From Amphiscolops sp. MND2022 (Eukaryota): a stretch of DNA of 64,000 bases. The translations under genes and the position numbers were made by a program. Below are positions 32,001-57,544 of the stretch, piece after piece (position 1 is the first letter of the stretch; every line of letters starts with the position of its first letter). The DNA lies in NCBI GenBank assembly GCA_964187785.1, contig OZ076410.1, positions 47,058,001 through 47,122,000 of the forward strand, read 5' to 3'. The notes beneath the pieces were generated by a model. That model was not told the origin of the DNA. It ran no database searches and worked only from the letters and a program-made list of their open reading frames with translations.

Positions 32001-33509
32001 CTCTGGTGTGTCGTCGTAGAAAGATTGAGACCTTATCGCATTTAATGCAGACCTTCCGAAAGAGCCACTTTGTTTCAAAAATCACCTTTCACAATGACAA
32101 GTGTGAAATATTTTCGCCCGTTTTTGGTAACAGTACGACGATCGAACGAAAAGCGATGGGGTTTTATGTTCACGTGCTTGACAACCCGAGCCGTACATCT
32201 AGAAGACGTTCCTTCTCTAGACACTAATTCGTGTATCATGGGAATATTCAAGTTTGCCGAGTGCCGCGGAACGCTGTCCGTAATTTGATCAGACACCGGT
32301 ACGAATTTCGTCGGGAGCGAGACTGAACTAGTTGAAAACATAAGCAAGCACCCCGAACTCCCGGTTGACAAGAAAATACGTGAAAGCTTAACCCCCCTGG
32401 TACACCTCACCAAGGTGGAGTATGGGAGCGTTTAGTCCTCAGATGTGAACGGGTCACTACTCCATCCTTGACGACTGTCGTCTCACCGATGAAATCCTCC
32501 TGACCGTCTTCTGTTTGATTGAACCGACATTGAACGCGCGACCTTTAATCCCAGTGAGCTCCGATCCATATGACACAGATGCGTTGACGCTCAATCATTT
32601 TGTCCTCGGTCGACCGAACAAGAGATTTCCGCCTACTACTGCATCCGCAATAGACTTTAACCATCGAAAACGGTACGCGCGGGCACAAACCTATGCCGTT
32701 GCAATCTGGGCAAAGTGGTTGAAAGAGTACAATCCCTTACTTAATCGCCGGAATAAGTGGGCCACGGATAGCAGAAGAGCGCTGTACCCAGGCGATATGG
32801 TCTGAATTGTTGAAACGTCCAATCCCAGGGGCAACTATTCCTTTGCGCGCATCGTCTCGCTAAATTCTGGTTCAGGCGGCATTGTGGGACCCGCAAATTT
32901 GACGTCAAAATCCCGAATCTATACAAAACCCTTGACAAAACTTGTACCTTTACTTGAGTCGACACTTTCCGGGGCGGAGAATGATGACAATTGTTCGTCA
33001 ACAAAAAATGAAAATAGTTTTTCAGCTTTTTAGATTTCCAAGCTTTTACGGTACGAACGTTGACTTTCACGTTATCGATGGGTTTTCGAACCCGCCAAGA
33101 ACGGCTCGGAGCGAACTGGTTCCCTTTTTTGAATAACCATAAAACATAAACACAAAACTTTTGACCTCTTAATTTATTTGACATGTAAAAATGACTGACA
33201 AGTTATTTTGACTTTCAGCTGACATTTTTCCAAAATAAATAGTTTCATTGACATTTAAATGTACGAACTATTGATAAACATTGCATAATCGGTTCTAAAG
33301 TTCATACAGTTTTTACATTAAAGCTGCCATTCTGTTTTCACTGAACCGTTGCAAGCTTAAACGCCTATCCGTTTTTGTTTATGACTGAACATCATACAAC
33401 TTTAGCAATGTTTTTTGACCAAGGAATTTCGAAATCCATTGTTATTCAAAAAACATTGTTTCTCAATCAAAGAACCTAAAGTATTCAGCTAGAGATTTTC
33501 AAATTTACA
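29050..33509 (+). mobile_element. Decayed BEL/Pao LTR retrotransposon (gag-PR-RT-RH-IN remnants, 3' LTR)
   Basis: Pao RT WYLSHHPGVNPKEPAKVR...SLNNSLLAGP...ADI; RH LHVFGDSSQ; IN KRWGFMFTCLTTRAVHLE...SDTGTNFVG; C-terminal LTLNHFVLGR...W.KWLKEY. PPT GGGGCGGAGAA precedes TG at 32982. Confidence 0.9.
32982..33509 (+). repeat. Putative BEL LTR copy 1 (TGATGAC...TTTACA, ~528 bp)
   Basis: Starts with TG after the PPT and ends CA at the point where the copies diverge. Repeated at 34257-34785, ~52070-52594 and partially at 50871-51323. Confidence 0.7.
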
Positions 33510-34785
33510 CCAAGTTTGCAAGTACTTTTCCAGCGCTCACCGCTGAACTGAAGAAGAGCGAATTACTTTTTCCGAGGACGAGGAGTAAATAAAGACGTCC
33601 CCTGCACACTGTGCATAAGCAAGCGCCCCGAACTCCAGCTTCACAAGAAAATTACGTGGAAGTTTAACCCCTTGGTACACCTCACCAAGGTGGATCGTGG
33701 GAGCGTTTAGTCCGCAGTTGTAAACCGGTCTCTACTCCATCCTTGACGACCGTCGTCTCACCGATGAAATCCTCCTGACCGTCTTCTGTTTGGTTGAACC
33801 GACATTGGACGCGCGTTTTTTAATCCCATTGAGCTCCGATCCATATGACACAGATGCATTGACGCTCAATCATTTTGTCCTCGGTCGACCGAACAACAGA
33901 TTTCCGCCTACTACTGCATCCGCAATAGACTTTAACCATCGAAAACGGTACGCGCGGGCACAAACCTATGCCGTTGTAAGCTGGGCAAAGTGGTTGAAAG
34001 AGTACATTCCCTTACTTAATCGCCGAAATAAGTGGGCCACGGATAGCAGAAGAGCGCTGTACCCAGGCGATATGGTCTGAATTGTTGAATCGTCCAATCC
34101 CAAGGGCAATTACTCTTTTGCGCGCATCGTCTCGCTAAATTCTGGTTCAGGCGGCATTGTGGGATCCGCAAATTTGACGTCAAAATCCCGAACCTATACA
34201 AAACCCCTGACAAAACTTGTACCTTTACTTGAGTCGACACTTTCCGGGGCGGAGAATGATGACAATTGTTCGTCAACAAAAAATGAAAATAGTTTTTCAG
34301 CTTTTTAAATTACCATTGTTTCATGGTAAGAACGTTGACCTTCACGTTATCGATGGGTTTTCGAACCCACCAAGAACAGCTCGGAGCGAACTGATTCCCT
34401 TTTTTGAATAACCATAAAACATAAACACAAAACTTTTGTCCTCTAAATTTATTTGACATGTAAAAATGACTGAAATGTTATTTTGACTTTCAGCTGATTT
34501 TTTTTCCAAAATGAATAATTTCATTGACATTTAATTGTACGAACTATTGATAAACATTGCATAATCGGTGATAAAGTTCATACACTTTTTACATTAAAGC
34601 TGCCATTCTGTTTTCACTGAACCGTTGCAAGCTTAAATGCCTATCCGTTTTTGTTTATGACTGAACATCATTGAACTTTAGCAATGTTTTTTGACCAAGG
34701 TGTTTCGAAATCCATTGTTATTCAAAAAGCATTGTTTCTCACTCACTGAACCTAAAGTATTCAGCTAGAGATTTTCAAATTTACA
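33510..34785 (+). mobile_element. Mini BEL unit: RT fragment + IN/3' fragment + PPT + second LTR
   Basis: 33510-33610 matches RT 30715-30805; 33615-34256 matches 32340-32981; LTR at 34257-34785. Confidence 0.8.
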
Positions 34786-36567
34786 TCGTCGCTATGTCGC
34801 AAAGATGGTAGGTAGCTAACGCTCACTCCGAAATTACGTCAGCACTACGTCAGTAGCTGCAGCTAGCTAGTCCTTTTCTCAAATTTACATCGTCGCAAAC
34901 TTACGAAAATTAGGCCATTACGCTGTTACTTAATTTTTTGTCCGCGCTACGTCAGCTACTGATCGAAATGTTGAAGAATCACGTTTTTACGTTTCGATTG
35001 AGTTGTCTAAAATGGATCTAGCGATCCGAATATTTTTTGATCCGCTTCAAATACCAATGTCATGTTTCATGATTTTGATGTTTTGTTTTAAATGTATTTA
35101 CAATAAATCTCAAAGAAATTGATCAGGACATTTTGTATTGAACATTGATCATCAGCACGAATAAACTGAAATGCTGCATGTTATCAGCGTTAAAAAACGT
35201 TTTTGTGAGCACACTCTAAATGTTGCACTGTACACCTCTACGATGTTTAATATGATGATCAATGATAATTATATTTCGTTGATGAATAAATCCTGTTGAT
35301 AATTTGCATAACCAGTCCTGATTCTTCATAACTAGGACCTTAACTTGGTATGATGTTTAATTTTGTTGTATCGATAATCAAAATTGTTCGTGCGTTTCGG
35401 AGTTTGTGACTTTGTCACGTCGTTAAGTGATGCAATAAATTTTCAAAAATTGACCAAATACAGCGATTAAACTTTTGTCAAAATGCTCTCTAGCATCATC
35501 CAACTAATCATTTTTGAAGTCATAATATATCCAGTTTAAAGTAAGGGTTCAATTTGAATTGTTCAGGCCATCGTTAGCTCTACAGCAGATTTTCACGCCA
35601 TTTGAAACAAAAAGTAGGAAAACTCTTTGAAAAATTGAGGAACACTTCCGGTTTGTCGAGATGGAATAAAATCTACTTCCCACTTGGGAGAAACAAAAAC
35701 CACGTCGGAATGAAATGATATGATCACGGGTGATGACTAAGACCAACTGAACTATGGGAGAATTATGAAATTTGACGAAATGTCGATGCAAACAAATTTT
35801 GATAAATGAAGATTGCCGTAATGAAAATAGGTGTGAGTAATCTTTCGGAGAAAATTCACGAACGCGTGTATGAACAGATGATGCTACGAGGGTATATAAA
35901 CTTGGAACTTTCGTAAACATTCATTCAATTGTTGTTTCGTTGCCTGAAAAATCAATCTTACTTTCTCGAACTTTCAGTTCAGAAAAGAATTGAATATAGT
36001 CTCAAATAAAGCACTCGCTCGTCTTGATGTCGACAAGAAGTCGAAAAAGAAAGAACACTCATCAGGAAAGCATCAAAAATTTAAGTGAAAACTTGGTTTG
36101 CCCAATTTCGGTTGAAAATGTGGGTCTAGATTACCGGGACGTCATGTTGGCGAGACCGTCAAGCTCGGAATACCACAGGGTTGAAAGGAACGAGTAAGAA
36201 AAGTTGAAAACATCCGTGAATGAGGAAATTACTTTTTAACAGAAGGAAAGAGCTGTTGAAACTGTTGGAAACAGGAAATCAGTAAAACGGGCCCGGAGAA
36301 AGACCTCAAGTTTTAGAAAGTGAATCTAGAAGTTTCTTCACACCCACTTAATCGGGTGACCCACTTACGGATCAATAGTACCCAAAGTAACGGAACGAAC
36401 ATGAACCGAAGCAGTCGCCTAACTGAAAAAAAACGTTCGTTCAACAAATGGAAATTCTTGTAAATTCAGTAAAGAACTCTCTAAAGTAGTGCGTGTTTAT
36501 TAGCAGTACGTTATCTTAAGGGTGGTGTGGTGTTGTAAAATAAAACTTCATTTCTCCCAAAGACAAT

Positions 36568-36637
36568 GAGTCCCTCCCAGGACTCGGAGCTCACCGGTTA
36601 AAAAACTGGCCGAATACACTCACCACTCGGCCATCGG
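36568..36637 (-). other. tRNA-derived SINE-like head (more decayed copy)
   Basis: Box A TGGCCGAGTGG with a mutated box B. Paralog of 54303-54373. Confidence 0.5.
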
Positions 36638-37394
36638 GAGGCGGAATACTGGGAAATTAGCCTGCTTATATCGGAATTAATTTCAATTCTTAGGTGATAG
36701 CATGCATCCTCACAGTGGCTTTTTGGCATGTTTTAAACGAATAACGCTGAATATTCACCAAACGTATTGATCCGATCCAACTGTTGCCACGCCGCCTCTG
36801 AAGATATAAATGTCAGATCTAAATCAGTTAAGATGTAACGCTATTCAGCCTTATTGTTTCAGCTCATTTATGTATCAACGTGATTCTCCATCAGCATTAT
36901 TCTGTTTCAGTTCAATTCCTCTGAACATTTGGTTAACTTGTTTCACTTTCCCCATATAATGGGACATCAAAATGTATTCATTAGTAGTAGTGGTACATTC
37001 CTGGCTTTCTCTTATGAATTGTTTTATTCGATGCGCTGACTTTGGATCATTTCTCATGAATTGGAAGCTTTCAATTTTTCGAATTTATCAATGAGTGATG
37101 GTATCTAAAATTCTGGAAAATCTCTTTTTCCTTATTAAGACCCCCCTCCCTGTATGAACTTCGTCGGGAGCGAGACTGAACTAGTCAAAAAGAGAAGAAA
37201 ATGGAATGAGCAAGCACCCCGAACTCCTGATTCACAAGAAATTTACGTGGAAGTTTAACCCCCTCGTACACTTCACCACCCCCTCCCGCCAGTGGCCGCA
37301 GGGAGGGGGAGGGGACAAATAAGACACAAGAGCACCAGTTCTGAAATACATCTCATATTATTTTCTGGACCACATGTTGTCTTAAATGCCCCCC

Positions 37395-38936
37395 TGTGAT
37401 AATCCTCTTCTGGGCTTTCAGTATTAGATTCTTCATCTGAATGTATAGTAATATTTACGTCTGATTCGCTCCGAAACAAAGGCTTTGCAGGATGTCTGAG
37501 ATCTTTCATTTTAGAAGCTCTAAGAGGATGATCGTCATTTTCGGAATCAGAATTCTCGTTATTAGATGCGCGAACTCCCATAGACCGCACTGTTTTGGAT
37601 CCCGAAGGTTGCAGATCTTGTATTTCATCAATATCAGATCTTGGGTTTGTCATTGTTGATGTGGTTTTATTCGATTTAACTTCTTTCAAAATTGCTTCAA
37701 GTTTACTATCCATTTCTTCTCTCATTTTCTCAATTTTGTGATCGTTCTTTTGTTCCATTATTTGGGTCCATAATTTGATTTCACTGTTGAGCAGGCTAGG
37801 TTCAGTTAACTGGTTTATTGCACTATTTTCACCTAAACCTTCTTGATCATTAACATTAGAATTAGTCAAAGTCACATTACCTGGGTTAGGCGTTTCTACT
37901 TGTGCTTCACTCAAATTTCTGTCAGGGGATGGTGTTGCTAATCTCCTGGACCTTCTGCTTCTCTTATTTCCCATCTTGCTCAATCAAAAAGATGTGTTTT
38001 GGTTGTTGGGGAAGAATTTGAATTGTTTGAAAGTGTCTCAAATCCAAAAGTGTTGGTGAGGAACAAAAGCAATCATCAGAAGAAACCGCTTTTACAACTT
38101 TATTGGGGTGAAAGTTTTAGCAACTGAACGTGATGACGGTTGGAATCTTAATGAAATTTTTGTGCTCGAACTACTTTATTTCAGAAAACTGGGAGCATGA
38201 CACTCCTTTTTAGAGGAATCACGCTGGCCTGGGGAACAAAAATAGAATAGCATCATCATTACGTCAGGATATTTATATCACCTTCAAAACTGATGAATAG
38301 GTCCTAGAAAGAACCTGGAAAACTATATTAAAGGCAATAAAGCACGTATTCGCAAGTATAATTGGAATGCACAAGCACCTGGTCCATTTCAAATGGTTAT
38401 TATGTTAAAGACGCATACCGACGAGTATACGTCACTTATCAAACCGCGAAATACCGTATAGTAGTAATCCGCATAATGGCAAGTAGTCGTCAAGCATCAA
38501 ACCGTAGAATACCGTATAGTTCAACTATGAAAACCGCATAATTGTGATTATTCAACAAAGCTCATTACGTATAATGACGCATATTCACAAGCACAAATGT
38601 TCCTTTTAATGGTGATGATTTCAAAAATGTTACTATTGCGTAACCAATTAGTCATTCGATGATCTTTTTAAGTACATTGTCTCAAGTTTTAACACGTTTT
38701 AGGCTTCCTGTGATGTATAAAGCAAACTTGTTACTAAAAGGTTGTTTAAGACATTTACTTTGCTTCTTCCGAAATGACAAATCAAATAAGTAACCCCCAA
38801 TTAAAATGTTTACACAAGTTTTTCGAGAAGGAATTAGGTGGATATTGTCAGTTTCAATCATCATTGTGAGAGCTTTCTCTGTTCTTCTTCAATCACTGTT
38901 GCACTCCGGATCCAGAAAAGCTGACAGGCTGAGACA
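37395..38936 (-). repeat. 3' LTR of the 13.1-kb Gypsy
   Basis: Direct repeat of 48938-50479, about 10 substitutions counted by eye. Purine-rich AAAGAGCGGGAC (PPT-like) immediately upstream at 38937-38948 on minus. Confidence 0.95.
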
Positions 38937-39960
38937 GTCCCGCTCTTTGGAAGATGAACAGAGCCGCTTCGAACCCATCAATGAAAGCACGCGAACGAAC
39001 TCCTCGATCCCTCACTGTCTCACCGTCGTAGGCGGTGGCTGTTAGATAATCCCCTAAAGTTTTGAGGGCAACTTGATCATATGTTTTCCCACATTGATCG
39101 CAGTGTCCCGCAACATTTGGCATTACTGTAGGGAAAAGCCGGAAATTTCTTCTAACGTCGGTTGGGATGAACGGCACATTCGGGCTATGCACAATTTGGA
39201 AAGGAAAACCCCATTGCACGCCTGGGTAGACAGGAAAATTGGGTTCTCGTAGGGCGTCAGGTCCTCCTCTTGGCGGCAACTGAATTATCAGAGGGGTCAT
39301 ATTGCTGACGGAAGGATCACTAGGGATCCCCCCAAATGTCGGCATGACATGTACGTTTGCAGTCTCCATATTTTGCGCGTGGTGTATAGGGAAATCTTGG
39401 CCATTCTCAGCATTCCTTTGCAGCGGATGAAAAGCTGATGCCTCTGGATCGTAGCTCAATGGGTAAGTGGGTAGTGCTGGACTATCGTAGCCTGCTTGTA
39501 CGACGTTCACACGCGGAGTGGGAAGGATTGCAGCGGTTGGGCGACCATAACTGTTTACTCTTGTATTGTCCAGATTGTCCATTCGACGCTCCTCTGGTGA
39601 TTCATTGGTCTCTTCGAATTCACTGTCAATGAATGAGGTGAGCGAAGCAGGGCTAATAACCCGGCTTTCCTCAATCAGTTCCATTAGCTCTTGTTCGATG
39701 CCAGTTCCTGTGGTATCTATAACACTGCCATGTAGGATTGGATCATTGCCTGATGGGAAGAGCTTTGCTGTTGTTGCCCCCATGAATGCAGTCATGGCAT
39801 CATGGGCCGTTTGGTTGACTCTGAATCGCTCTTCCAACTGTGGCACATTCCCGGGTTCAACCAGAAACTCGTCCCATGAGTTGCTTGAAATGTCTATCAC
39901 GTCTGGTGATATTGGAGAGTATAAGGAATCTTCTTCCAGGTTAAATTGTAGGCTGCTCAT
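38893..39960 (-). CDS. Orphan 355-aa ORF at the env position; acidic, Pro-rich, C-terminal CxxC
   Basis: Intact ATG-to-stop ORF, sense to gag-pol, ending 44 nt inside the 3' LTR. HCDQCGKTYD near the C-terminus. No obvious signal peptide or TM helix. Confidence 0.7.
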   Translation of the reverse strand: MSSLQFNLEEDSLYSPISPDVIDISSNSWDEFLVEPGNVPQLEERFRVNQTAHDAMTAFMGATTAKLFPSGNDPILHGSVIDTTGTGIEQELMELIEESRVISPASLTSFIDSEFEETNESPEERRMDNLDNTRVNSYGRPTAAILPTPRVNVVQAGYDSPALPTYPLSYDPEASAFHPLQRNAENGQDFPIHHAQNMETANVHVMPTFGGIPSDPSVSNMTPLIIQLPPRGGPDALREPNFPVYPGVQWGFPFQIVHSPNVPFIPTDVRRNFRLFPTVMPNVAGHCDQCGKTYDQVALKTLGDYLTATAYDGETVRDRGVRSRAFIDGFEAALFIFQRAGLSQPVSFSGSGVQQ

Positions 39961-40146
39961 TATTTAAGATTATCGACAGAGTGCTAAGTAAATTTTACTT
40001 CACTGAGGAAAAAGAAGTTTTAATATTTCAGATGACTGTATAGCAGTTTCACAAAGACCTTATGGTGAAAAGTTTTGGAGTTTCTTCCGATTTAAGAGTA
40101 AAAACCCGCGGAAAATATCGCATGTCATGGTCTGATCCTCTCAATT

Positions 40147-40158
40147 CCCTTATAAGGG
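40147..40158. promoter_or_regulatory. Palindromic TATA-like element CCCTTATAAGGG ~190 nt upstream of the orphan ORF
   Basis: Perfect 12-bp palindrome containing TATAAG on both strands. Function inferred from position only. Confidence 0.35.
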
Positions 40159-40869
40159 TTTTGCGGGGTTTCTGATCACAAGTTTTAACGACGCTGAGAG
40201 ATAAACAAATTCCATATTAGGCGATCCAAATTTCTTCATCACCTTACTTCCACATTTCTGTGTTCTTCACACTGTTTCGTCGAAGTTTTAAGTGATAGAT
40301 AAACAAATTTAACCTAACATCAAAGTAAAAGAAATGAAACCCGGTTTACAAAATTTGTTAAGTCATTAAAACCAAAAATCTATTTATTCGAATTTACATG
40401 ACAGAAGGTAAAAGAAAAATGTAAACTAGCAAAATAGGGTTCACTCTGACTAAGACCAGCTTTAAGCAAGCCTTAACTGCAAGGGGCATTTTGTTTTGTT
40501 ATTGTCCCGCACTTGAAAAGTGCGTGGGACTATGCCTATCAAATGATTTCACTGTAACAATCGAATTTTAAAATACAACTTCGTAAAAAGTAGTCCCTAA
40601 TTGCAATACCATATCAGTATACCATTGACACATCAAACTATATTCAAAAGAACAATAATCCACATGTATCACATATTCCAATAATATTAGGCATCTATCC
40701 GCATCAATTGACATGTAGGTTCTTCATTCTGTTACGTAATATTGAATCATTCACTCATTACCACTCATTACCAGTATCATTCTATCTCTTTAAACACACA
40801 CAACGAAAACCGCAAAGTGGCGAGAATACGTCATTGCTCGATCCGCTTGTTGCCGCATAGTCAAGTGAT

Positions 40870-40997
40870 TGCAATTCCGCATACTGCCGAGTACTCTCCA
40901 TCTGCAATTCCGCATACTGCCGCATACTCTCCATCTGCAATTCCGTATACTGCCGCATACTCTCCATCTGCAATTCCGCATACTGCCGCATACTCTC
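40870..40997 (+). repeat. 33-bp minisatellite x ~3.9 (TGCAATTCCGCATACTGCCGCATACTCTCCATC)
   Basis: Read directly. Holds seven CCG(C/T)ATA motifs, ~430 nt upstream of the antisense gene ATG. Confidence 0.95.
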
Positions 40998-41430
40998 GCT
41001 TAGCAAACCATTCCGATTTGCTTCGCAGGTCTGCATCTGTATATATTCTCGCATTCAAAATTATGGTGAGTCAATCAATCACGCTGGCAGACGTAATTGA
41101 CTTTTAATCAACCAATCAGATTTCAGTATTTCTTTTGCACATTTGCGCAAACTTGTTTCATTTGCTCTTTGCCTTGTATTTGTACGCCACGCCTCTTTGT
41201 CATGTTCTATTAACACTGCTTACGTACGTTTATCAAGTGAAATTCACAGTCAAAGTTCAAAGTCTCAGTATTTACAGTTTTAATTTTCTTTCCCTCTTTC
41301 ATCTGTCAACTACTTCTTCCCAGCACTTCAAGTGTCGCTCCCCTTACTCACGGGTTATCGCTCCGTTGTTCTCAACTTGCTGCTTACATGTGTTCCACAA
41401 CGAATTACCTTTGGTAGAAAATGGATTCCC

Positions 41431-44400
41431 ATGGACGAATTGGCGGGTAGTTTCACCCAGGATGTGTATCGAGACTTGATTCCGCAATGTAGTTCCCAAA
41501 TGGAATCCCCCCGATTTGATCCATTTCTTCCACAAACCGAGAACAATGATGACGCTCCCCAGAATTCTGCTGTGGTTGGACTGGATACAGTACTGAACCC
41601 CGAAGATATTCGTCTGCAGGAGGATATCGGTCATGCCGGAGAAGAATCCAATCTTCAGGTTGGAACCCTCTCGAGCCTCAGCATTACACGACAAGAGATT
41701 CTCGTTTTGTCGAGTGTGCTTGATAGAATACCCCAGCATTTCTTACTAATGAAGAAATTAACATTCATCAACCCATGGGGTTGACAATTGTAGACGATCT
41801 TGTGCCGACCGCAATTCCTGCCACTTCTAGTCAGGAAGAGTTAACCATGCACACTGATCCCGGAACAACGCATCAGGAGACAGGTCAGAACGTCCCTTTG
41901 GCGCGAGGGAAACGACGTCGAGCCAAGTATTCTCTAACCGGCGGAATGCTCAAAAAACGTCCTGTCCTAAAATTCTCTGCCACCGGACCATTAGATAAAA
42001 GCAAGTCCCCCCATAAATGGTGGTGCAGAGTCTGCAAAGTAGAGCTGTCGCTCATGAGCCGGGGGAGTCTCGAACTGATTTCGCACTACCGCTCAGAGGC
42101 TCACCTAATCAAGGAGCATCGTATCCGCATGGAGGTGCCAGGAATGTCTCTCTACGATAAGGACCAGACTGAATTGTTAGGGGTTGCTCTCCAAGAAGCG
42201 AAGAGGAAAGCTAAAGACACTTATCCTATTGCTCCCCAACTCGATTCCTGCCGACCTCTCGTGGGACAAGAGTCAATCCCTGATTTTACCGCTGCTAGTA
42301 GTCCTACAGACAAAGTGCAATCTCAAATTAGTATTCTTGAGTTCGGTTTGAAGCATGGTGGACACATTTCCAGTCTAACGGGAATGTATGACGAGCTTGT
42401 GCGCTTAACATCCAGCGATCGATTGTCAATGCAAAATTGGGTCCCGAACGTCTCTTCGTAAGTCCCTTCTTCCTTTTCTCTAGGTTATTTTCAATATCAT
42501 TTTGATATCCTAGGTATTACATATGTCATTTTACGCGATGTGCTCGTCCAATACCCTCTTCAGTTCTTTCGTATATTAAAGGCATTTCATGTTACAGGGT
42601 ATCCTAGTGGACATGTTTCGAGAATTGGTAAGCTACTGTGTCTCGATGGTCACTTCTTCTGGATATTATTCTTTGGCCATCCAACATACTAGCACCGTGT
42701 CTTTCGTCATGCTTTGTTTCTGGGCCGGCAATGTTTACCATCGAGTCTGCCTTGGTGGGGCACCTCGAGGACTGTTACTCCCACGGAAGGTCATCGCCCT
42801 GGTATCCTCTTTACTCAGTCTCTTCGAGACTTACCCGACTTGTGTGGCCCTTATTGACTTCGAAGGCAAAATTAGCGAGTGTCTGATTGCTTCCCTGCCT
42901 GGATCACACTGCCCCACAATAGTCCACACATTTGGCCCTAAGGAGTTTGAACGCAGTTTGGCTACCCCAACTGTACAGATAATCGAAAGGCATGACTACC
43001 GGACAATTTTGGATTTTCTGATGATGAAACTCAGAACAGCCCTCGATCGGGATTGGTTACAACAGTTACCCCTCTTGCATAAGGTAAAATCCCAATCACA
43101 AGTCACTTTGTTCCTTGATAGAAAACTCTTTTCTTGTCAATTCCAATTCTTTAATGTTGTAGTGTGTCATCCAATTGGACTGTTCACTTGCCGAAGCATC
43201 AGATTTGATTGAGATCCTGTCCGGCAACTGGAATCATGTCCAGAATCATTTAAATCAAGTGGCTCGACTCCCTGCTTATCGCTTCCACATGAGAGAGGTT
43301 ATTTTCAGTTTTCTTTATTTGCCTTTAGTCAGGACTGTCCCCCTCTTATTTTCTAATTTTCTTTCCAGCCAAGCACTTTGGACGAGTGTTTTCGCCTGGA
43401 CACGGCCTACTTGGCCAGACTATTCATCATTAGATGCGTCCTTGATCACTGTTAGTTGGTTGTTTCTTTTGCTCAGTCCAAAAGTCGGAGTTTCACCGTA
43501 CATACTTAATATTATGTTCATTTTATAACATGAATTTCGATATCTACCCTTTCCACTAGGATATATAGTTCATCCCTTTCATACCAAGACAAATAGTTAC
43601 TTGGCCTATTTCTCATAATTGCGTTTAATTGCCCTTGGCCGCTGGTTTCTGATTTGTATTGCATTGTTTTATGATGGATCCGTATCATGACAAGTAGTCG
43701 GTACATCTCAAAACGTGTAGTGTCGCATCGTCACCATATAATACTATTTCAGCATAGTGGCGAGCGCTCTCCACAACTCAAACCGTATAGTGACGCACCG
43801 ATTTCGCTGCTTGAACTGAATAATGACGTATAGTTGTCGTCTTCTACTAGTTCCGCATAGTGCCGAGTAATCGTCACAGCTCAAGCCGCATAGTGACGTA
43901 TAATCGTCGCACCTTGAACCGCATAATGACGCGTAATTCTTGCAATACTATGTATTGAAGTAGTTGGTGCGGCTTGTTTCTTCACGTGTTGTATTAGTTA
44001 ATCCCATTCAGAGTTTCAACACGTTGATTTTTTATGATTTTTCATTTTATAGTTGTAATTTGAGTGTTTTGTCTTGTTTCAGACAATTCATCATTCGCAG
44101 AGGTTCAGAAACAGGTGGAAGGCGGCTTTCGTTTGTTCAACCAGTTTACGGTTTTTGCCTACAGTCAATTGCAAAGCATCTTGCCCGATAGTACCTTGGG
44201 CAACATTTCGAACTGGGACGGCTTCCTTCATCTAGATTTGGATTCTACCGCATTACCGTACAAGTCTCCCGATGAGTTCATATTGAATGAAGACTTTCAC
44301 CGACTTGTGATTGCTAGCAAATTACCTCGGCCAGGTAAATTCGTGGAACAGTCAATCAGTTTCTGTAAGGCTTTCTGCAGACAATTGCTGATACATGATT

Positions 44401-45191
44401 TTGTTCAATCGGATTTGCTCAGGGGGCTATCTGCTTTTGACACTGCCGTTATTTTTGAAAATTCTGAAGAGCATTACGTTACAGCGATCGATAAGTTGAC
44501 TTCTCATTTTGTATCAGCCGGGTTATTCTCCTCCAGCGATAAAGTGAAGGCTGTTAGCCAATACCGCTCACTTGTGACAAAGTTACGTGTTGGTTCTGTT
44601 CCTGAGTACAGCGATTGGATTCATTTTATGTCATCATACTATGAATTACAGTGTCGACCAGAGTTATTCCGTTTGTTCAAGCACTCTTGCCTCTGTCTGG
44701 CGCCGATTGTAGAGTTGCCGTCACCCTCCATAGTGCCTATCCCAAATTTGGAATCTGATAAGGACTTATTTCAGTCCTGCATCCGGAGTCTCGAGGTTTC
44801 TTATCAGACAGTGCCACATGTTTCGAGTTTATTTAGAGATCCGAAAGCCGTTGGAAGAGTCTTCCGTTTGCTAGGGAGGGGGATAGACTTGATAGGTGAC
44901 AAGAAGTTTTCTGTATGGAATTTCCTTAAGGGGAGTGGTTCCCGAAGATCAGTCTTGCTTGGTAAAATGGAAACTAACTACAGGAAAGCTGTTCTGCGTC
45001 GTGATAAGCCTTCTGTATCTTCCAGCGCCACTACTCCGAGTGTGAGCAGGACCAGCAGCGTGGGTAGTAGTCCCTCACCAGATCCTTCATCGAGTCGGGC
45101 TAGTTTCCCACTAAACCGATGTTCAAGCGGAGCCGAGCAAACTGTCTCGAAGAAGGCGAGTGCAAAGGTGTCAAAGTCAAAGAAAAACTAG
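41431..45191 (+). CDS. Six-exon antisense gene, ~920 aa: TTF/BED-like zinc finger plus degenerate hAT-transposase-like body (one apparent 1-nt deletion at ~42440)
   Basis: Exons 41431-41658, 41727-42457, 42598-43083, 43163-43297, 43369-43450, 44083-45191. All introns are GT-AG. Phases match (0, 0, 0, 0, 1) provided one G is restored in TGGGTCCC at 42438-42445. Finger WWCRVC-x16-HYRSEAH. YYSLAIQH, VALIDFEG, CPTIVHTF and RPELFRLFKHSCLCL occur in hAT core/dimerisation order. Confidence 0.78.
43730..43935 (+). repeat. Degenerate ~35-40-bp repeat array built on CCG(C/T)ATA(G/A)TGACG in intron 5 of the antisense gene
   Basis: CCGTATAGTGACG (~43783), CCGCATAGTGCCG (~43854), CCGCATAGTGACG (~43887), CCGCATAATGACG (~43919), plus ACGTATA variants. 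Confidence 0.85.
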
Positions 45192-45427
45192 TTGTTGACT
45201 GTTTCTCTTTATTTAGTCTTATACTCATCTTTTGTTTCATTTGTGTTGTAAAGCTGCGCATCCTTGTATTTATTTGGGTGAAGCGCGGATTGTAGTATAG
45301 AAAAAAGAAACGGGGAAAAGTTAAACTACGCGCTAAAAGTGCGGTTAAGAGAGAAGGAGTTCAAAGAAATTTTTCCTCTGCAATTCTTTTCTTAGTGTTT
45401 GTATGAGTCGAAGTCTAGAAGTTGTTT

Positions 45428-47656
45428 TTAATACCTATATGTGTCAGAGTAGTTTGGGTTGGGGTTAGGACGTAAGTTGTATTTTTCACCGCGTGTGTTC
45501 ATGGGTTCTTCTTGCAATGGGGTGTTTTGGGAATTTTCTGGGGTTTCTGAAAGGCGTTCTGAAAGGCGTGGAATGTAGTTGCGATAGTAGTTTAAAAATC
45601 CGATGTACCTCTGCAATGCCTTCTTTGATTTGGGAAAGCGAAGTTTTGAGAGGAAATCTTTGACTTTGTCGGCTTGGGGGGCGACTCCATGAGGAGTTAT
45701 TGTGCGACCCAAGAAATCAACTTGTTTGACTCCGAAATGACACTTCAACATGAAAAGTTTCAATCCCGCGTTGCGGATGCATTCGAAGACTGTTCTGATG
45801 TTTGTACACAATTGTTTTGTGTCATTCGCTGCTATTCCAATGTCATCTACATATTGGGCACATTGGTCTGCTTTTATTGCTTTGTCCAGGTACTCTCTCA
45901 TGAAGCTTGAAAATGCAGAAAATGATCTGCTGAGGCCCTGGGCGAGACGACGGTATGCAAATGTTCTGCTTGCAAAATTGAAAGCAAGCATCTGAATTGA
46001 TTGATAGTCTGCCATTTGTAGGCAGTGGTAGGCCTGGGAGCAATCTAATTTGCCGAAGAGTTTTTTCCCTGCCATGTGTTGGGCTGCGTCCGACAAAGTG
46101 CTTACCGGATGGTTATTATTGGTGTAATCTTCAGATATTAAGTTATTGATTTTCCTTAGGTCTACAAGAAGCCTAAGGCGCCCATTGGGTTTGCGTTGTG
46201 CAAATATGGGACTCGCGTATTTAGAGAAGGGTAGAGTTGTAATGATACCATACTTATGTAGGAGTGCAAGTTCTACTGTGATATCATCTTTGAGATTGAT
46301 GGGAGTTGGCAGACTTTGACTGTAAGCAGGTCTGTCATCATTTGGTGTGAGTTCTACTTTAAATTCACGATTTATGCCAATATCGAAACGATGTCTGGCA
46401 AAAATGTCATGGAATTCTATGAGGATTTCTTCAATTTCCTGTTGTTCTTCAAGGTCGAGTGTGGTATCCGACCAGTCGAAGTTCGACAGGAAAGCTTTTC
46501 GAGAAGATTCGTTGTCGTGTGGATTCAATTTCTCGAGTACTTTTAGTTCGAGAAGTTCGTTGTAAATCCTTTGTTGAATTGGGGTGTAAGTAGCTGGGTC
46601 ACCTGGTTCTTCGGGTGTTGGGAACCAGTATGTTTCGTGTTCAGTATTTGGTTGTGGGACCTTTAGCAATTCATTTATGTAGACTTCTGTTGTTTCTTCA
46701 TGTTGTATCATGAAAGATAGCAACGCTGGCTCTACCGGTTGGATGTGTTTGATTTGTTCTGGAGTTAGTATCTTGAAGTCCGCTAAATGGGTATCAAGAG
46801 TTATTGTATATGGTAGTTCGGAGAAATTGATGATTTGATATCCGATAGCATTGTTATTGACAGTGCTGAGTGATGCTGTGATAAAGATGCTATCGTGGTT
46901 TTCAAATTGTTGTGATGGTGTGACAATTCCGGTCGCATCATGATCCATCAGATGAGGCATTTTGCTTGCTATTGCAAGTGTTTCTCCTGGTTGTAGGGTG
47001 TATGTATTTTCGGCAAACAATGGTGTTGCTTGGCGTATTGCTGTTTGTGTATCAGGCTTGAGCTGCATCGAGAGGTAGGGAAAAGTTAATATGCCTTGAT
47101 TGACGTCAAAGATTGCATTGTTCCTTCTGAGGAAACACAATCCAATGAGTGGGTTTGGTAGATTTTTCATGACGATGAAATTTTCCTTCAACATGAAATC
47201 AGCCACTTCGAATTCGAGTAATACAGTACCAATGGGAACTTCGAGTTGTCCGTTAGCCACCTTAATTTGGAAGTTTGGTGGGGGACCAGTTTCTTTGATA
47301 GCTTCACTTGCTAATAGTTTGATTTTATTACGGTCTTGTTCAGAGATTGCGCTTGTAAGCGCTCCTGTATCAATAAGACCATCAAGGGTGAGTTTTTCAA
47401 AGTCCATCGGTATGTAGTACATATGGCGTTTTCTCTTCAATGTCAAGGAGGTTGAGATTGGAAGGTATGACAAGTTCCGTTCCTTGTCGAATTGTATATG
47501 TTCAGTGGGATCTTCATCTAAAAGGGGTTGTTTTTCTTCATTGTAAGAAGGTTTTATTATAACATGATTCTTTGAAGTGTGGTGAATTTCTGGAGTTGGG
47601 TCAATTTTGGGATGGGTTGGTTGTTGTGGAAAGTAGTTGTCTGGTGCATCGTGCAA
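45428..47656 (-). pseudogene. Gypsy pol: protease and RT, with RNase H and integrase removed by an in-frame deletion
   Basis: LIDTGA protease; RLLVDLRKIN, LDCSQAYH, YRRLAQGL, YVDDI, VDFLG, FLNYYRNYIP. It then jumps at RLSE|TPENSQ (~45545) to the typical C-terminal tail YNLRPNPNPNYSDTYRY. Confidence 0.92.
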
Positions 47657-47826
47657 AAGTTCGTATAAGTCTTCAGTTTGAGTTTCTAGTGTCGATTGCT
47701 GCGAATTTTGTGTGGTTAATTCAGTTTCGCAGACTGCTGTTTTTGTAGGTTTTGGGCTTAGCGGATGCTGCCAGTCATCTGCTAAGTTTTGTTTTGGTGG
47801 TGATTTTGTGTAAGGGCGTGGCGTTT

Positions 47827-49526
47827 CTAGTTTAAATCCTTCGACGAGGATTGTTGTTGTCGTTCCATTTTTGGTTTGATTGGTTTTTTGGCTTGTTTAT
47901 AGTTTTCAATCACCTTTTTCTGGGCTTCTGTGAGAGTCCATTTAGGTGGCCGGTTTTCCATGTTTGCGCCAAAGTAGCAATTTTCTTCATCGTGTCCAGG
48001 TGTATTGCAATTTTGGCATTTTTCAGCATCTGGGTCTTTCTCAAGTTTACGCCGTTTGGCTAATTTGGGACAGTCAGCCATCATGTGGCCTGTCTCTTTG
48101 CAGTAACGGCATTGATCATTTTTGAGTGTTTTACTTGGTACTGTTTTTGGTGTTTGTGTTTTGGCTTTTTCATTTTGTTTTTTGTTGGTTTTTTCAGTGT
48201 TTTGTTCTTTTTTCGTAGCCGACATCTGGGTTTTCACCAAGGGTTCATCAGCTTCTAAACCATTTAGCTCCATCTCTCTTTCGAGATGTTTGACGATTTG
48301 GTCATATGTTCCATTTTCAAGGTATGCTTGATTAATGGACTTTTTGAGGTGGGGAGGCATTTTAGCGTAGAGTAGGTTCTCTATCATCTGATATGCGTTC
48401 TCCCCGAACGCTTTTTCGGCACTCTCCTGGAGTTCCTCTAAAAAATCTGGAAGTTTCTGGTGTTCTGGGTCAAATGCAAGTCTATTGAATCTGTGCTTAG
48501 CTGAGGCACTAGATTCCGGCTTGACATATTTCCTGCGAAAGACTTTTAGGATGTCTTCCAAAGTCGTTGTTGGGGTTCGTTGTATATTTTTAAACGTTTT
48601 GAGTGCCAAACCTCTGAGATGTGCATGAAAATGGTTGATTTTCATCTCCTCAGTTAGGTTTGGTTGCATTTTTAGGGTTGTGTGGAACAAGTCTTCAAAG
48701 TATTCAAATTTCTCATTTTTCTCATTTTTTCCATTGAAAGTTAAAGTGTTTTTCGGGTGAAACAGTGATGGTTGTGTGTTTTTGTTAGCTAGTCTTTCGA
48801 TTGCGAGTGCAATTTGGTTGACTGGGTCAAGTGGTTTTGTTGTCAAATTTGGCAGATTTTGCTCTGCGTGGGCCCTGCTGTGTCATTTAGTTTTTGTGAA
48901 CTTTGTCTATGGAGTTGTCGGTTGGCTCCTGTCACCATGTGATAATCCTCTTCTGGGCTTTCAGTATTAGATTCTTCATCTGAATGTATAGTAATATTTA
49001 CGTCTGATTCGCTCCGAAACAAAGGCTTTGCAGGATGTCTGAGATCTTTCATTTTAGAAGCTCTAAGAGGATGATCGTCATTTTCGGAATCAGAATTCTC
49101 GTTATTAGATGCGCGAACTCCCATAGACCGCACTGTTTTGGATCCCGAAGGTTGCAGATCTTGTATTTCATCAATATCAGATCTTGGGTTTGTCATTGTT
49201 GATGTGGTTTTATTCGATTTAACTTCTTTCAAAATTGCTTCAAGTTTACTATCCATTTCTTCTCTCATTTTCTCAATTTTGTGATCGTTCTTTTGTTCCA
49301 TTATTTGGGTCCATACTTGGATTTCACTGTTGAGCAGGCTAGGTTCAGTTAACTGGTTTGGTGCACTATTTTCACCTAAACCTTCTTGATCAATAACATT
49401 AGAATTAGTCAAAGTCACATTACCTGGGTTAGGCGTTTCTACTTGTGCTTCACTCAAATTTCTGTCAGGGGATGGTGTTGCTAATCTCCTGGACCTTCTG
49501 CTTCTCTTATTTCCCATCTTGCTCAA
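47827..49526 (-). CDS. Gypsy gag with N-terminal extension encoded in the 5' LTR; apparent 1-nt frameshift near 48870
   Basis: ORF 48843-49526 starts at an ATG inside the LTR. ORF 47827-48846 has only a TTG start but is open upstream to AEQNLPNL. Capsid-like FNGKNEKNEKFEYFEDLF; knuckles CRYCKETGHMMADC and CQNCNTPGHDEENC. Confidence 0.82.
48924..48937 (-). promoter_or_regulatory. Primer-binding site TGGTGACAGGAGCC
   Basis: Begins TGG immediately after the LTR-terminal CA. Resembles Leu-type tRNA 3' ends, but the primer is not identified with certainty. Confidence 0.8.
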
Positions 49527-50479
49527 TCAAAAAGATGTGTTTTGGTTGTTGGGGAAGAATTTGAATTGTTTGAAAGTGTCTCAAATCCAAAAGTGTTGGT
49601 GAGGAACAAAAGCAATCATCAGAAGAAACCGCTTTTACAACTTTATTGGGGTGAAAGTTTTAGCAACTGAACGTGATGACGGTTGGAATCTTAATGAAAT
49701 TTTTGTGCTCGAACTACTTTATTTCAGAAAACTGGGAGCATGACACTCCTTTTTAGAGGAATCACGCTGGCCTGGGGAACAAAAATAGAATAGCATCATC
49801 ATTACGTCAGGATATTTATATCACCTTCAAAACTGATGAATAGGTCCTAGAAAGAACCTGGAAAACTATATTAAAGGCAATAAAGCACGTATTCGCAAGT
49901 ATAATTGGAATGCACAAGCACCTGGTCCATTTCAAATGGTTATTATGTTAAAGACGCATACCGACGAGTATACGTCACTTATCAAACACCGAAATACCGT
50001 ATAGTAGTAATCCGCATAATGGCAAGTAGTCGTCAAGCATCAAACCGTAGAATACCGTATAGTTCAACTATGAAAACCGCATAATTGTGATTATTCAACA
50101 AAGCTCATTACGTATAATGACGCATATTCACAAGCACAAATGTTCCTTTTAATGGTGATGATTTCAAAAATGTTACTATTGCGTAACCAATTAGTCATTC
50201 GATGATCTTTTTAAGTACATTGTCTCAAGTTTTAACACGTTTTAGGCTTCCTGTGATGTATAAAGCAAACTTGTTACGAAAAGGTTGTTTAGGACATTTA
50301 CTTTGCATCTTCCGAAATGACAAATCAAATAAGTAACCCCCAATTAAAATGTTTACACAAGTTTTTCGAGAAGGAATTAGGTGGCTATTGTCAGTTTCAA
50401 TCATCATTGTGAGAGCTTTCTCTGTTCTTCTTCAATCACTGTTGCACTCCGGATCCAGAACAGCTGACAGGCTGAGACA
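48938..50479 (-). repeat. 5' LTR of the 13.1-kb Gypsy
   Basis: Direct repeat of 37395-38936. Contains a CCG(C/T)ATA array at ~49965-50130 and the gag-extension ATG at 49526. Confidence 0.95.
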
Positions 50480-53400
50480 CCCCCCAAGCGGCCGGAGATG
50501 GGGGACGGGGAGGGGGGAAATAAGAAACAAGGTTTAAATACCGTCATGTCTAAATCGTTTGGAACGTTTAATAAATTAACGAGTTGTTAAAAAAATGTTT
50601 GTTTGGGCATCGATGACAGAAACAAGAGTTTTCAAGCGTCTTCAATGCATTTTGCTTTACATGTTAAATATTCTCCGAGAATTCTATAATTTATGCATTT
50701 CACCTTAACAGCCAAAAAAAGCAAATTTGCCTGATTTGGTCAAAATTTCAGCACAACTGCAACAGCATATGAGTTCATATTCATTTTTATTTCGAAAAAC
50801 TTTTCATACTCATATGTCCGAAAAAAGATTGTTGTCTGGTATTGTGCCAATTGCTTCTTTCAATACGAACGAACGCTGACCTTCACATTATCGATGGGTT
50901 TTTGAACCCGCCAAGAACGGCTCGGAGCGAACTGATTCTCTTTTTGAATAACCATAAAACATAAACACAAAACTTTTGTCCTCTAAATTTATTTGACATG
51001 TAAAATTGACTGACATGTTATTCTGACTTTCAGCTGACTTTTTTTTCCAAAATAAATAAGTTCATTGACATTTAATTGTACGAACTATTGATAAACTTCG
51101 CATAATCGGTGCTAAAGTTCATACACTTTTTACATTAAAGCTGCCATTTTGTTTTCACTGAACCGTTGCAAGCTTAAACGCCTATCCGTTTTTGTTTATG
51201 ACTGAACCTCATACAACTTTCGCAATGTTTTTTGACCAAGGTATTTTGAAATCCATTGTTATTCAAAAACATTGTTTCTCAATCACAGAACCTAAAGTAT
51301 TCAGCTAGAGTTTTTCAAATTTACACCAAGTTTGCAAGTACTTTTCCAGCACTCACCGCTGAACTGAACGGGAGCGAATTACTTTTTCCGAGGACAAGGA
51401 GTAAATAAAGACGTCCCGTGCACACTATGCATAAGCAAGCACCCCGAACTACAGGTTCACAAGAAAATTACGTGGAAGTTTAACCCCCTGGTACACCTCA
51501 CCAAGGTGGATCGTGGGAGCGTTTAGTCCGCAGTTGTAAACGGGTCTCTACTCCATCCTTGACGACCGTCGTCTCACCAATGAAATCCTCCTGACCGTCG
51601 TCTGTTTGGTTGAACCGACATTGAACGCGCGACTTTTAATCCCAGTGAGCTCCGATCCATATGACACAGATGCAGTGACGCTCAATCATTTTGTCCTCGG
51701 TCGACCGAACAACAGATTTCCGCCTACTACTGCATCCGCAATAGACTTTAATCATCGAAAACGGTAGGCGCGGGCACAAAACTATGCCGTTGCAATTTGG
51801 GCAAAGTGGTTGAAAGAGTACATTCCCTTACTTAATCGCCGAAATAAGTGGGCCACGGATAGCAGCAGAGGGCTGTACCCAGGCGATCTGGTCTGAATTG
51901 TTGAAGCGTCCAATCCCAGGGGCAATTACTCCTTTGCGCGCATCGTCTCGCTAAATTCTGATTCAGGCGTCAGTGTGGGATTCGCTAATTTGACGTCAAA
52001 ATCCCGAACTTATACAAAATCCCTGACAATACTTGTACCTTTATTTGAGTCGACACATTCCAGAGCGGAGAATGATGACAATTGTTCGTCAACAAAAAAA
52101 AGGAAATAGTTTTTCAGCTTTTTAAATTACCATTATTTTACGGTACGAACGTTGACCTTCACGTTTTCGATGGGTTTTCGAACCCACCAAGAGCGGCTCG
52201 GAGCGAACTGATTCCCTTTTTTGAATAACCATAAAACATAAACACTAAACTTTTGTCCTCTAAATTTATTTGACATGTAAAAATGACTGACATGTTATTT
52301 TGACTTTCAGCTGACTTTTTTTTCCAAAATAAATAATTTCATTGACATTTAATTGTACGAACTATTGATAAACATTGCATAATCGGTGCTAAAGTTCAAA
52401 CAATTTTTACATTAAAGCTGCCATTTTGTTTTCACTGAACCGTTGCAAGCATAAACGCCTATCCGTTTTTGTTTATGACTGAACATCATACAACTTTAGC
52501 AATGTTTTTTGACCAAGGTATTTCGAAATCTATTGCTATTCAAAAAACATTGTTTCTCACTCACTGAACCTAAAGTATTCAGCTAGAGATTTTCAAATTT
52601 ACATCGTCGCTATGTCGCAAAGATGGTGGGTAGCTAACGCTCACTCCGAAATTACGTCAGCACTACGTCAGTAGCTGCAGCTAGCTAGTCCTGGTCTCAA
52701 ATTTACATCAACATTACGTCGCAAACTTATGAAAATTAGGCCATTACGCTGTTACTTCATTTTTTCTCCGCGCTACGTCAGCTACTGATCGAAAAGTTGA
52801 AGAATCACGTTTTTTGTTTCGCTTGAGTTGTCTAAATTGGATCTAGCCATCCGAATATTTTTTGATCCGCTTCAAATACCAAAGTCATGGTTCATGATTA
52901 TGATGTTTTGTTTTAAATGTATTTAGAATAAAACTCAAAGAAACTTATCAGGACATTTTGTAATGAACATTGATCATCAGCACGAATAAACTGAAATGCT
53001 GCTTGTTAACAGCGTTAAAAAACGTTTTTTATGAGCACACTCTAATGGTGCAACGTACACCTCTACGATGGTTAATATGATGATCAATGATAATTATGTT
53101 TCGTTGATGAATAATGCCTGTTGATAATTTGCATAACCAGTCCTGATTCTTCATAACTGGGACCTTAACTTGGTATGATGTTAAATTTTGTTGTATCGAT
53201 AATCAAAATTGTTCGTGCGTTTCGGAGTTTGTGACGTTGTCACGTCGTTAAGTAATGCAATAAAATTTCAAAAATTGACCAAATAAAGCGATTCAGCTTT
53301 TGTCAAAATGCTCTCTAGTCAAAATTCAACTAATCATTTTTGAAGTCATAATATCTCCAGTTTAAAGTAAGGGTTCAATTTGAATTGTTCAGGCCAGCGT

Positions 53401-54302
53401 TAGCTCTACGGCAGATTTTCACGCCATTTGAAACAAAAAGTAGGAAAACTCTTTGAAAACTCTTTGATATGATCACGGGTGATGACTAAGACCAACTGAA
53501 CCATGGGAGAATAATGAAATTTGATGAAATGTTGATGCAAATAATATTTGATTAATGAAGATTGCCGTGATAAAAAAGGTGTGAGTAATCTTTCGAAGAA
53601 AATTCAGGAACGCGTGTATGAACAGATGATGCTACGAGGGTATATAAACTTGGAACTTTCGTAAATATTCATTCAATTATTACTTCGTTGCCTGCAAAAT
53701 CAATCTTACTTTTTCGAACTCTCAGTAGTTCAGAAAAGAATTGAATTTAGTTTCAAATAAAACACTCGCTCGTCATGATATCGACGAGGAGTCGAAAAAG
53801 AACGAACACTCATCAGGAAAGCATCAAAAATTCAAGTGAAAACTTAGTTTGCCCAATTTGGGTTGAAAATGTAGGTCTAGGTTACCGGGACGTCATGTTG
53901 GCGAGACCATCAAGCTCTGAATACCACAGGGTTGAATGGAACGAGTAAGAAAAGTTGAAAACATCCGTGAATGAGGAAATTACTTTTCAACAGAAGGAAA
54001 GAGCTGTTGAAACTGTTGGAAACAAAAAATGAGGAAAACGGGCCCGGAGAAAGACCTCAAGTTTTAGAAAGTGAATCTAGAAGTTTCCTCACACCCACTT
54101 AATCGGGTGACCCACTTACAGATTAATAGTACCCAAAATAACGGAACGAACATGAACCGAAGCAGTCGCCTAACTGAAAAAAAACGTTAGTTCAACAAAT
54201 GGAACTTTGGTAAATTAAGTAAAGAACTCTCCTAAGTAGTGCGTAGTACGTTACCCTAAGGGCAATGTGGTGTTGTAAAATTTCATTTCTACCAAAGACA
54301 AT

Positions 54303-54373
54303 GAGTCCCGCCCGGGACTCGAACCTCACCGGTTGAAAAGCTGGCCGAATACACTAACCACTCGGCCATCGTG
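54303..54373 (-). other. tRNA-derived SINE-like head
   Basis: Minus strand GATGGCCGAGTGGTTAGTGTATTCGGCCAGCTTTTCAACCGGTGAGGTTCGAGTCCCGGGCGGGA. Box A and box B intact, but no clean cloverleaf. Confidence 0.6.
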
Positions 54374-54842
54374 AGGCGGAATACTGTGAAATTAGCCTAC
54401 TTATATCGGGTATAATTTCAAGTCTTAGGTGATAGCATGCATCCTCACAGTGGCTATGTGGCATGTTTTAAACGAATAACGCTGAATATTTACCAAACGT
54501 ATTGATCCGATCCAACTGTTGCCACGCCGCCTCTGAAGATATAAATGCCAGATCTAAATCAGTTAAGATGTAACGCTATTCAGCATTATTGTTTCAGCTC
54601 AATTTTGTATTGACATTATTCTCCATCAGCATTATTCTGTTTCAGTTCAATTCCTCTGAACATTTGGTTAATTTGTTTTACTTTCCCCATATAACGAGGC
54701 ACTAAAATGTATTCATTGTTGAGGTACAAAATGTTGTGGTACATTCCTGGCTTCCTCTTATGAATTGTTTTATTTGATGCGCTGAATTTGGATCATTTCT
54801 CATGTATTGGAAGCTTTCAATTTTTCAAATTTATTAATCATT

Positions 54843-55150
54843 GTGCCCCCACCCTGCGGCCATTGGCGGGAGGGGGTGGTGAAGTGTACCAGCGGGGTTA
54901 AACTTCCATGTAAATTTCTTGTGAATCAGGAGTTCGGGGTGCTTGCTCATTGCATTTTCTTCTGTTTTTGACTAGTTCAGTCTCGCTCCCGACGAAATTC
55001 ATACCGGGAGGGGGGTCATAATAAGAAAAAATAGATATTTCCAGAATTTTAGATACCATCACTCATGAAAGTTCATGGGAATCACTCGTGGAAGTTTAAC
55101 CCCGGTGGTACACTTCACCACCCCCTCCCGCCAATGGCCGCAGGGTGGGG
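54843..55150. repeat. Local inversion with flanking duplicated inverted repeat
   Basis: 54843-55064 is the reverse complement of 37090-37310. The segment equivalent to 37247-37310 is present both inverted (54843-54910) and forward (55085-55150). Confidence 0.85.
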
Positions 55151-57350: not shown

Positions 57351-57544
57351 TCAATCATGTATCGATCAAGTTTTTACACTGGAACGTTTCTTTCTATTGC
57401 TTTTGGGGAATCTTCGATGCTATTAGACAACGCGGCGGCCAATAAAACGAAAGCAAAACAGCACTAATATCAGTTGAATTGTTTTGAAAATTGTTGTTGT
57501 CAAGGTTGAACTATCGGCGGTTATTCGGGTTCAACGACAGACGC

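Follow-up and report, generated by a model that had tools for sequence, protein, structure and literature searches.

A 64,000-nucleotide (nt) stretch of the genome of Amphiscolops sp. MND2022 (GCA_964187785.1, OZ076410.1, 47,058,001–47,122,000; hereafter the window, with positions counted from its start) contains a Ty3/gypsy long terminal repeat (LTR) retrotransposon, on the minus strand at 37395–50479, whose non-coding DNA bears dense plus-strand arrays of the heptamer CCG(C/T)ATA. With somewhat more confidence than doubt, we read these arrays, on the strength of sequence comparisons, as candidate binding sites for a BED-like zinc-finger protein, probably of hAT descent, whose antisense gene the element carries. 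The conserved unit of the arrays is not the single heptamer but a pair of half-sites with a 10-base-pair (bp) period, MCGYATA-NTG-MCGYATA (M = A/C), set within repeats of 32–33 bp. A trans-acting factor acting on a cis-acting array fits these data because the arrays sit at three fixed non-coding sites, are confined, in the sampled loci, to one retrotransposon lineage, match a hAT word and, in a clade of the lineage termed D, are represented by another word with 10-bp spacing. The arrays, with ORF3 denoting an open reading frame (ORF) near the 3' LTR, are:

38412 to 38590, plus strand: LTR array in the predicted U3 of the 3' LTR, with four CCGYATA plus ACGYATA variants
40811 to 40997, plus strand: promoter-side array, located between the antisense gene and ORF3 and made up of 10-bp dyads in a 33-bp minisatellite
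43681 to 43937, plus strand: intron array, in a predicted intron, of 33-bp units with 10-bp dyads, preceding the last predicted exon
49955 to 50133, plus strand: LTR array of the 5' LTR, the same as in the 3' copy

The original prediction, made from the sequence, had placed about 20 plus-strand CCG(C/T)ATA heptamers in this element, and all 20 were recovered: four in the 3' LTR (38454, 38469, 38512 and 38534), four in the 5' LTR (49997, 50012, 50055 and 50077), eight within 40853–40986 and four at 43783, 43853, 43886 and 43919. Over the whole window and both strands there are 29 such heptamers versus 5.5 ± 2.3 in shuffled sequence, and 0 of 100 shuffles reach 29. The 20 sites are not independent: two clusters are near-identical LTR copies (99.2%), and a single 33-bp tandem array accounts for all but one of the eight sites in the middle. 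The LTR, promoter and intron arrays align with one another at 62–76% over 51–66-nt stretches. The proposal that the motif, rather than the repeat unit, is conserved across different repeat contexts is not supported, as the units are related at this level and recombine. The array that had been assigned to intron 5 does contain its heptamers, but the intron itself is only predicted, and other families do not retain the ATG/GT at 41062. Open frames through the minisatellite, which would give 11-residue repeats, were considered as coding sequence and rejected because the related intron array contains stops. The minus strand of the window holds nine heptamers, four of which cluster at 6415–6478, outside the element and inside a hAT-derived miniature inverted-repeat transposable element (MITE).

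We compared elements of five clades. Clade A comprises 20 elements drawn from the best 150 of 6,460 candidate finger matches, clades B (11) and C (9) together comprise 20 elements from a distant-homolog search, and clades D and G comprise 20 each; because the copies of any one clade are related, clade counts do not represent independent events. In all of these elements the parts are ordered LTR–ORF3–antisense gene–pol (in clade G, among the loci listed). In 12 clade-A elements, direct spacings between half-sites peak at 10, 22–23, 32–33 and 42–43 bp. The TG separating the half-sites, which was not used in selecting the units, carries 1.2–2.0 bits, and the unit tail 0–1.0 bits. Genome-wide, the dyad yields 3,940 matches versus 9 for a reversed control pattern, a difference that speaks to family specificity and not to function because the pattern was derived from this very family. 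The first 100 of the 3,940 matches form 19 clusters, 17 of which were fetched, as 19 loci. All 19 loci contain pieces of this retrotransposon lineage, and two clusters coincide with finger matches. Fourteen of the clusters adjoin the antisense gene, two resemble solo LTRs and three are gene-less mini-elements, which have 4–6 dyads per LTR versus 0–2 in most full elements among the sampled dyad loci. These mini-elements (L087, L091 and L097) have LTRs of ~1.3 kb, an interior of ~1.4 kb and enlarged LTR arrays of mixed type.

The three array sites recur throughout clade A, whose finger exons are 69–98% identical. At least five MCGYATA are present in the LTR and in the promoter stretch of 20/20 elements and in the intron of 19/20, the one exception having lost that stretch. 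Counts per element are 5–10 in the LTR (20/20), 6–16 on the promoter side (20/20) and 5–13 in the intron (19/20), while the coding parts are nearly free of the motif. Clade C carries CCGCATA together with an inverted partner, TATGCTG, so that related words stand on both strands. Clade D, whose integrase half, like that of clade G, is 66–68% identical to clade A, is without MCGYATA arrays and has its own dyad, GGCC-N6-GGCC, with 66 of 76 pairs at exactly 10 bp; these pairs are found in the LTR and promoter stretch, with none in the intron, and the clade also has a 32-bp AANATGGCG repeat. Across clades A, B and C the reverse transcriptase (RT) is 80–95% identical and the fingers 42–55%, and within clade A, LTR and gene types reassort (L005 versus L017). 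Ten other gypsy elements chosen by integrase, which are distant controls (RT 22–29%), have no array; nine are without the gene, and the tenth is chimeric and carries a clade-D gene. The search turned up no gene-less family that is a close sister. In the chimera (L108/L109), a clade-D 3' half is joined to an unrelated RT and the antisense gene is without a finger.

The same word occurs in the MITE noted above, which lies outside the retroelement:

6330 to 6500, minus strand: end of the hAT MITE, a ~480-bp repeat with four CCGCATA subterminal repeats

This repeat has the attributes of a hAT element, namely terminal inverted repeats (TIRs), an 8-bp target duplication, a PF05699 remnant (25.3 bits versus a cut-off of 21.4) and subterminal repeats. 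Judged by eye, the target duplication is exact in 4, and 7/8 in another 4, of 14 other copies. Forty matches of the family were scored, and the terminal-repeat pattern gave 62 matches versus 0 for the control. In five copies the CCGCATA(T) repeats number 8–11 on one strand versus 2–3 on the other. A complementary end lies ~14.5 kb from the MITE end of the window, ahead of position 1 (L199:195–464); the two may belong to a single copy that later insertions have separated. Related intact free hATs, which we take to resemble CGGBP-type hATs, differ from one another in their end repeats, all of which contain CG; those of one family read CCGCRTA. Six free families (L226, L229, L231, L234, L242 and L244) each combine a distinct CG subterminal word with an H-x5-H finger and form a natural finger–motif panel. 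The arrays might instead be bound by a free transposase from the hAT family of the MITE, and not by the element's protein, a reading that the shared word in the MITE and the similar word of an intact free family would favour. We nevertheless consider it very unlikely: no intact, autonomous partner with the MITE TIRs was found in 20 plus 30 loci, MITE sites are spaced mostly at 9–12, 22 or 26 bp and not with the 10-bp phasing of the retroelement, and young elements, with LTRs >99% identical, still keep their arrays.

The exons of the antisense gene, predicted from splice signals and conservation alone, include:

41431 to 42458, plus strand: finger exon, with a BED-like C-x2-C...H-x5-H finger at ~42025–42105
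42599 to 43084, plus strand: middle predicted exon
44085 to 45191, plus strand: last predicted exon, an all-helical domain

In the window copy the gene is broken in three places, with 666 bp missing at 41430 and frameshifts near 41731 and 42439; in relatives the finger exon is mostly open, and C-x2-C...H-x5-H is retained in the finger alignment. Nonsynonymous over synonymous divergence (dN/dS) was 0.015/0.295, 0.051/0.35 and 0.018/0.274 for the three exons, or 0.05–0.15, each from the one pair that was unsaturated. By this measure the gene is under purifying selection. The BED-like assignment draws on weak similarities. For the finger model the top Foldseek rows were the ZBED1 BED domain and Hermes, both weak (E 1.4), with nothing at E ≤ 0.001 for either the finger or the last-exon model, and zf-BED was passed by 1 of 28 distant homologs. 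A profile of this finger run against 2,243 ORF pieces gave as its best free-hAT match a weak hit (iE 0.013) to a family with CCGCRTA 3'-end repeats, and hhalign of the finger against free hAT fingers gave E 0.0015 with a probability of 17%. The pattern of the middle exon, which has no profile support, presumably resembles the RNase-H-like strands of hAT transposases minus their acidic residues; across 23 rows the likely first strand shows no invariant acidic residue, in a register that follows from this presumed resemblance. Pfam scans of the window ORFs and of the finger- and last-exon alignments (60 and 72 members) returned no informative family, PF05699 included; a PDB sequence search with the profiles returned unrelated rows only, and a DUF4371 search had no match, its control also being silent. 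Distant homologs of the protein lie on short contigs, and two of them used as queries in genome G000 gave no match at strict thresholds. A homolog search starting from a free hAT returned one protein.

The finger model aligned best, in the VIA comparison, with U1/matrin-type fingers (TUT4, Z 5.0, root mean square deviation (rmsd) 3.2, 64 aligned), a result that, with the single-strand orientation of the clade-A words, would suit words acting in RNA, in packaging, splicing or export, with the finger as an RNA-binding domain. We regard this as highly improbable, since in clade C related words occur on either strand and the clade-D word is palindromic. The finger of a free hAT likewise scores on zf-U1 (E 6e-4), so the U1-type fold is no pointer to RNA.

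Several findings weigh against recognition of the arrays by the element's own finger protein. All 11 clade-B elements have the gene but at most two MCGYATA per site, and their top words in a de novo count are CAGCATA and GCATAAT, the excess of CAGCATA being just 10–20-fold. Clade G retains the gene, and no array was found with all 20 loci counted. Nor do finger cores track motifs: those of A and C differ although the word is shared, and those of B and C are alike although the arrays differ. LTR, ORF3 and gene are neighbours and are always matched by clade, which linkage suffices to explain; the motif differs among A, C and D, B and G show none, and linkage may likewise underlie any co-change of motif and protein. 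The gene-less mini-elements keep their arrays, at odds with a strict gene–array pairing, and the one mini-element LTR examined fuses LTR-, promoter- and intron-type units, so that no selection is needed for an array to be copied from one site to another. On the protein side, the top VIA row of the last exon, Hermes transposase 368–600 (Z 5.1, rmsd 9.1, 165 aligned), falls within the tool's chance range for helical arrangements, and the middle- and last-exon profiles had no significant match to free hATs (Ac-type, CGGBP-type) beyond the finger. Since no transposase serving the MITE was found, its finger is not comparable with that of the retroelement. The trans-factor and cis-array module envisaged by the original prediction fits the data, but a fixed pairing is unsupported, clades B and G having the gene without arrays.

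The kinship of the units at the three sites and their fusion in mini-elements would also be expected if the arrays were functionless relics of the subterminal repeats of a captured hAT, which slippage and template switching had multiplied and made uniform, and this account could accommodate a copy number that ranges from 6 to 16 as well as clades B and G managing without arrays. We think it quite unlikely, because half-sites and spacing persist while the remainder of the unit and the neighbouring ORF3 diverge, and because the arrays stay at three sites and avoid nearby non-coding DNA. An enhancer for a host transcription factor, with the element-encoded protein acting otherwise, is unlikely too, although gene-less mini-elements that retain and enlarge arrays, and clades B and G with a gene but no arrays, would suit it. 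So would the many half-sites TGACGTAT and the clade-D AANATGGCG repeat, which we take to be CRE-like and YY1-like, respectively; the host-factor names AP-1, CRE, YY1 and C/EBP are assigned on our assumption. Against a host factor, the dyad is confined to the lineage in 19/19 sampled loci and absent from nine other gypsy elements, the word is that of a hAT subterminal repeat in the same genome, and it changes between clades while shared promoter words stay. These promoter words lie beside the second array:

41062 to 41200, plus strand: promoter-like block of the antisense gene, with CTGGCAG, CCAAT and GCCACGCC words, and TGAGTCA and TTGCGCAA in most elements

The block was compared in 15 elements of clades A–C, and its position and words suggest a promoter role. 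CTGGCAG and GCCACG are retained in it in every clade examined, D and G included. As to whether the motif is equally dense in families without the gene, a condition set out with the original prediction, nine distant gene-less gypsy elements are without arrays, and the mini-elements and the hAT MITE carry the motif.

If the arrays are indeed sites for the element's own finger protein, intact copies would supply that protein in trans, and it may bind as a dimer or oligomer to both members of a pair, which would lie on the same face of the helix, in the manner in which hAT BED domains bind subterminal repeats. Bound at the LTR array it would raise transcription of the element, a positive role suggested because gene-less mini-elements keep enlarged LTR arrays, whereas at the promoter and intron arrays it may feed back on its own gene. 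The window copy, being unable to make the full protein, would depend on other copies.

The heptamer contains a CpG, and sensitivity to methylation, or anti-silencing, had been entertained on that ground. In 37 LTR pairs, CpG transitions (54/2,777, 1.9%) are as frequent as those at other C/G sites (297/16,432, 1.8%; ratio 1.08), and the host ratio of observed to expected CpG is 0.93. CpG sites are thus not hypermutable and the idea is unsupported; a ratio of about 1 argues against germline CpG methylation, and by this indirect measure DNA methylation is probably not involved.

The host of the arrays is assigned to Ty3/gypsy from its gag followed by protease and RT. Its parts are:

37395 to 38936, minus strand: 3' LTR, with TG..CA ends
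38896 to 39963, minus strand: ORF3, 356 amino acids, with no Pfam family
45431 to 48882, minus strand: gag and pol (protease, RT), ~2.6 kb of pol being missing here
48938 to 50479, minus strand: 5' LTR, 1,542 bp, with TG..CA ends and the start of a gag-frame ORF

The LTRs are 99.2% identical, CCCCC on each flank forms a 5-bp target duplication, and a stretch resembling a primer-binding site, a candidate only, lies just inside the 5' LTR at ~48920–48937. A TATA-like box lies near 38270 on the minus strand, with the LTR array upstream of it. The RNase H and integrase region is missing from the window copy, and relatives have the corresponding length. ORF3 keeps its position in all five clades (A, B, C, D and G) and is 43–60% identical in most families; it has a C-x2-C motif and evolves faster than the antisense gene. 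An ORF found in all five clades begins within the LTR (37273–37983; 48843–49526) and heads towards gag, which it adjoins in frame in relatives. In elements L061/L062, L067/L068 and L039/L040, the antisense gene or LTR–ORF3 blocks are tandemly duplicated. Gypsy families L102, L106 and L114 have env-like third ORFs, and L112 and L114 have small ORFs whose C-terminal part we take to be J-domain-like. Another repeat, which has internal duplications of 1.27 kb, is interrupted in one of its copies by the element (32300–37390 and 50480–55640), and a second copy of that repeat follows. Other tandem arrays in the window have periods of 83 bp (56924–57323) and 64 bp (57544–57726), and an 84-bp-period array with TATACGG also flanks locus L054.

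In Arabidopsis VANDAL elements, VANC proteins were shown to bind motifs and cause methylation loss (PMC5735166). As there, an accessory protein is encoded by the element, a dense same-orientation motif occupies terminal, intergenic and intronic non-coding DNA, motifs lie in tandem repeats and words are family-specific (PMC5735166). Dense same-orientation non-coding arrays are here found in the cognate family only, with the exception that the single word also forms arrays in the hAT MITE. VANDAL is, however, a Mu-like plant DNA transposon, whereas this element is Ty3/gypsy and CpG methylation has left no sign in it. The proteins to which VANC is linked are MAIN-like and not BED/hAT (PMC13547354), and no VANC or MAIN-like Pfam domain was found in the 60 and 72 members scanned. 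Spm TnpA and the AtMu1 transposase offer another likeness, in that a transposase or derivative, often without catalytic residues, regulates motif-bearing elements; all of those cases are DNA transposons or host genes, and the main text of that source contains neither "retrotransposon" nor "LTR" (bioRxiv 10.64898/2026.08.24.746577). With Hermes and CGGBP-type hATs, the element shares a BED-like finger layout and short words, mostly in one orientation per end, and those systems have CGG-containing motifs with paired, cooperative binding (PMC10368747, PMC8097297). hAT-encoded CGGBP-type domains mostly prefer CGG or CGC words from their own subterminal regions (PMC8097297). By contrast, the words here belong to a retroelement without TIRs, in which they occupy LTR, promoter and intron, and the cooperative Hermes pair is quasi-palindromic, whereas these dyads are direct at 10 bp (PMC10368747). 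Retand, a plant Ty3/gypsy element, has an antisense ORF between pol and the 3' LTR with predicted DNA binding, and family-specific tandem arrays of unassigned role (PMC11963269). Its TRP28 domain (PF04195) was not found here in Pfam scans; moreover, splicing is predicted for the antisense gene of the present element, whose LTRs contain the arrays as well. Thus, the element resembles VANC and TnpA in layout but is a member of neither, and is Retand-like with another protein. We found no published description of these arrays in a literature search made without the organism name, most subscription papers being outside its coverage.

Plant DNA transposons (VANC, TnpA) are where sequence-specific regulators encoded by the element itself are known together with demonstrated target arrays, and the targets of the antisense extra ORFs of LTR elements have so far only been guessed. 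Here the target word and the rule for its spacing can be named, clades A and D offer a natural swap, and the role of such ORFs is therefore testable. As a tentative scenario, to which we give a little less than even weight, an animal LTR lineage took both a finger protein and its subterminal word from a hAT transposon and made of them a switch of its own, whose phased arrays stand in LTR, promoter and intron; the clades would then have diversified both components, and the gene-less mini-elements may parasitise the switch.

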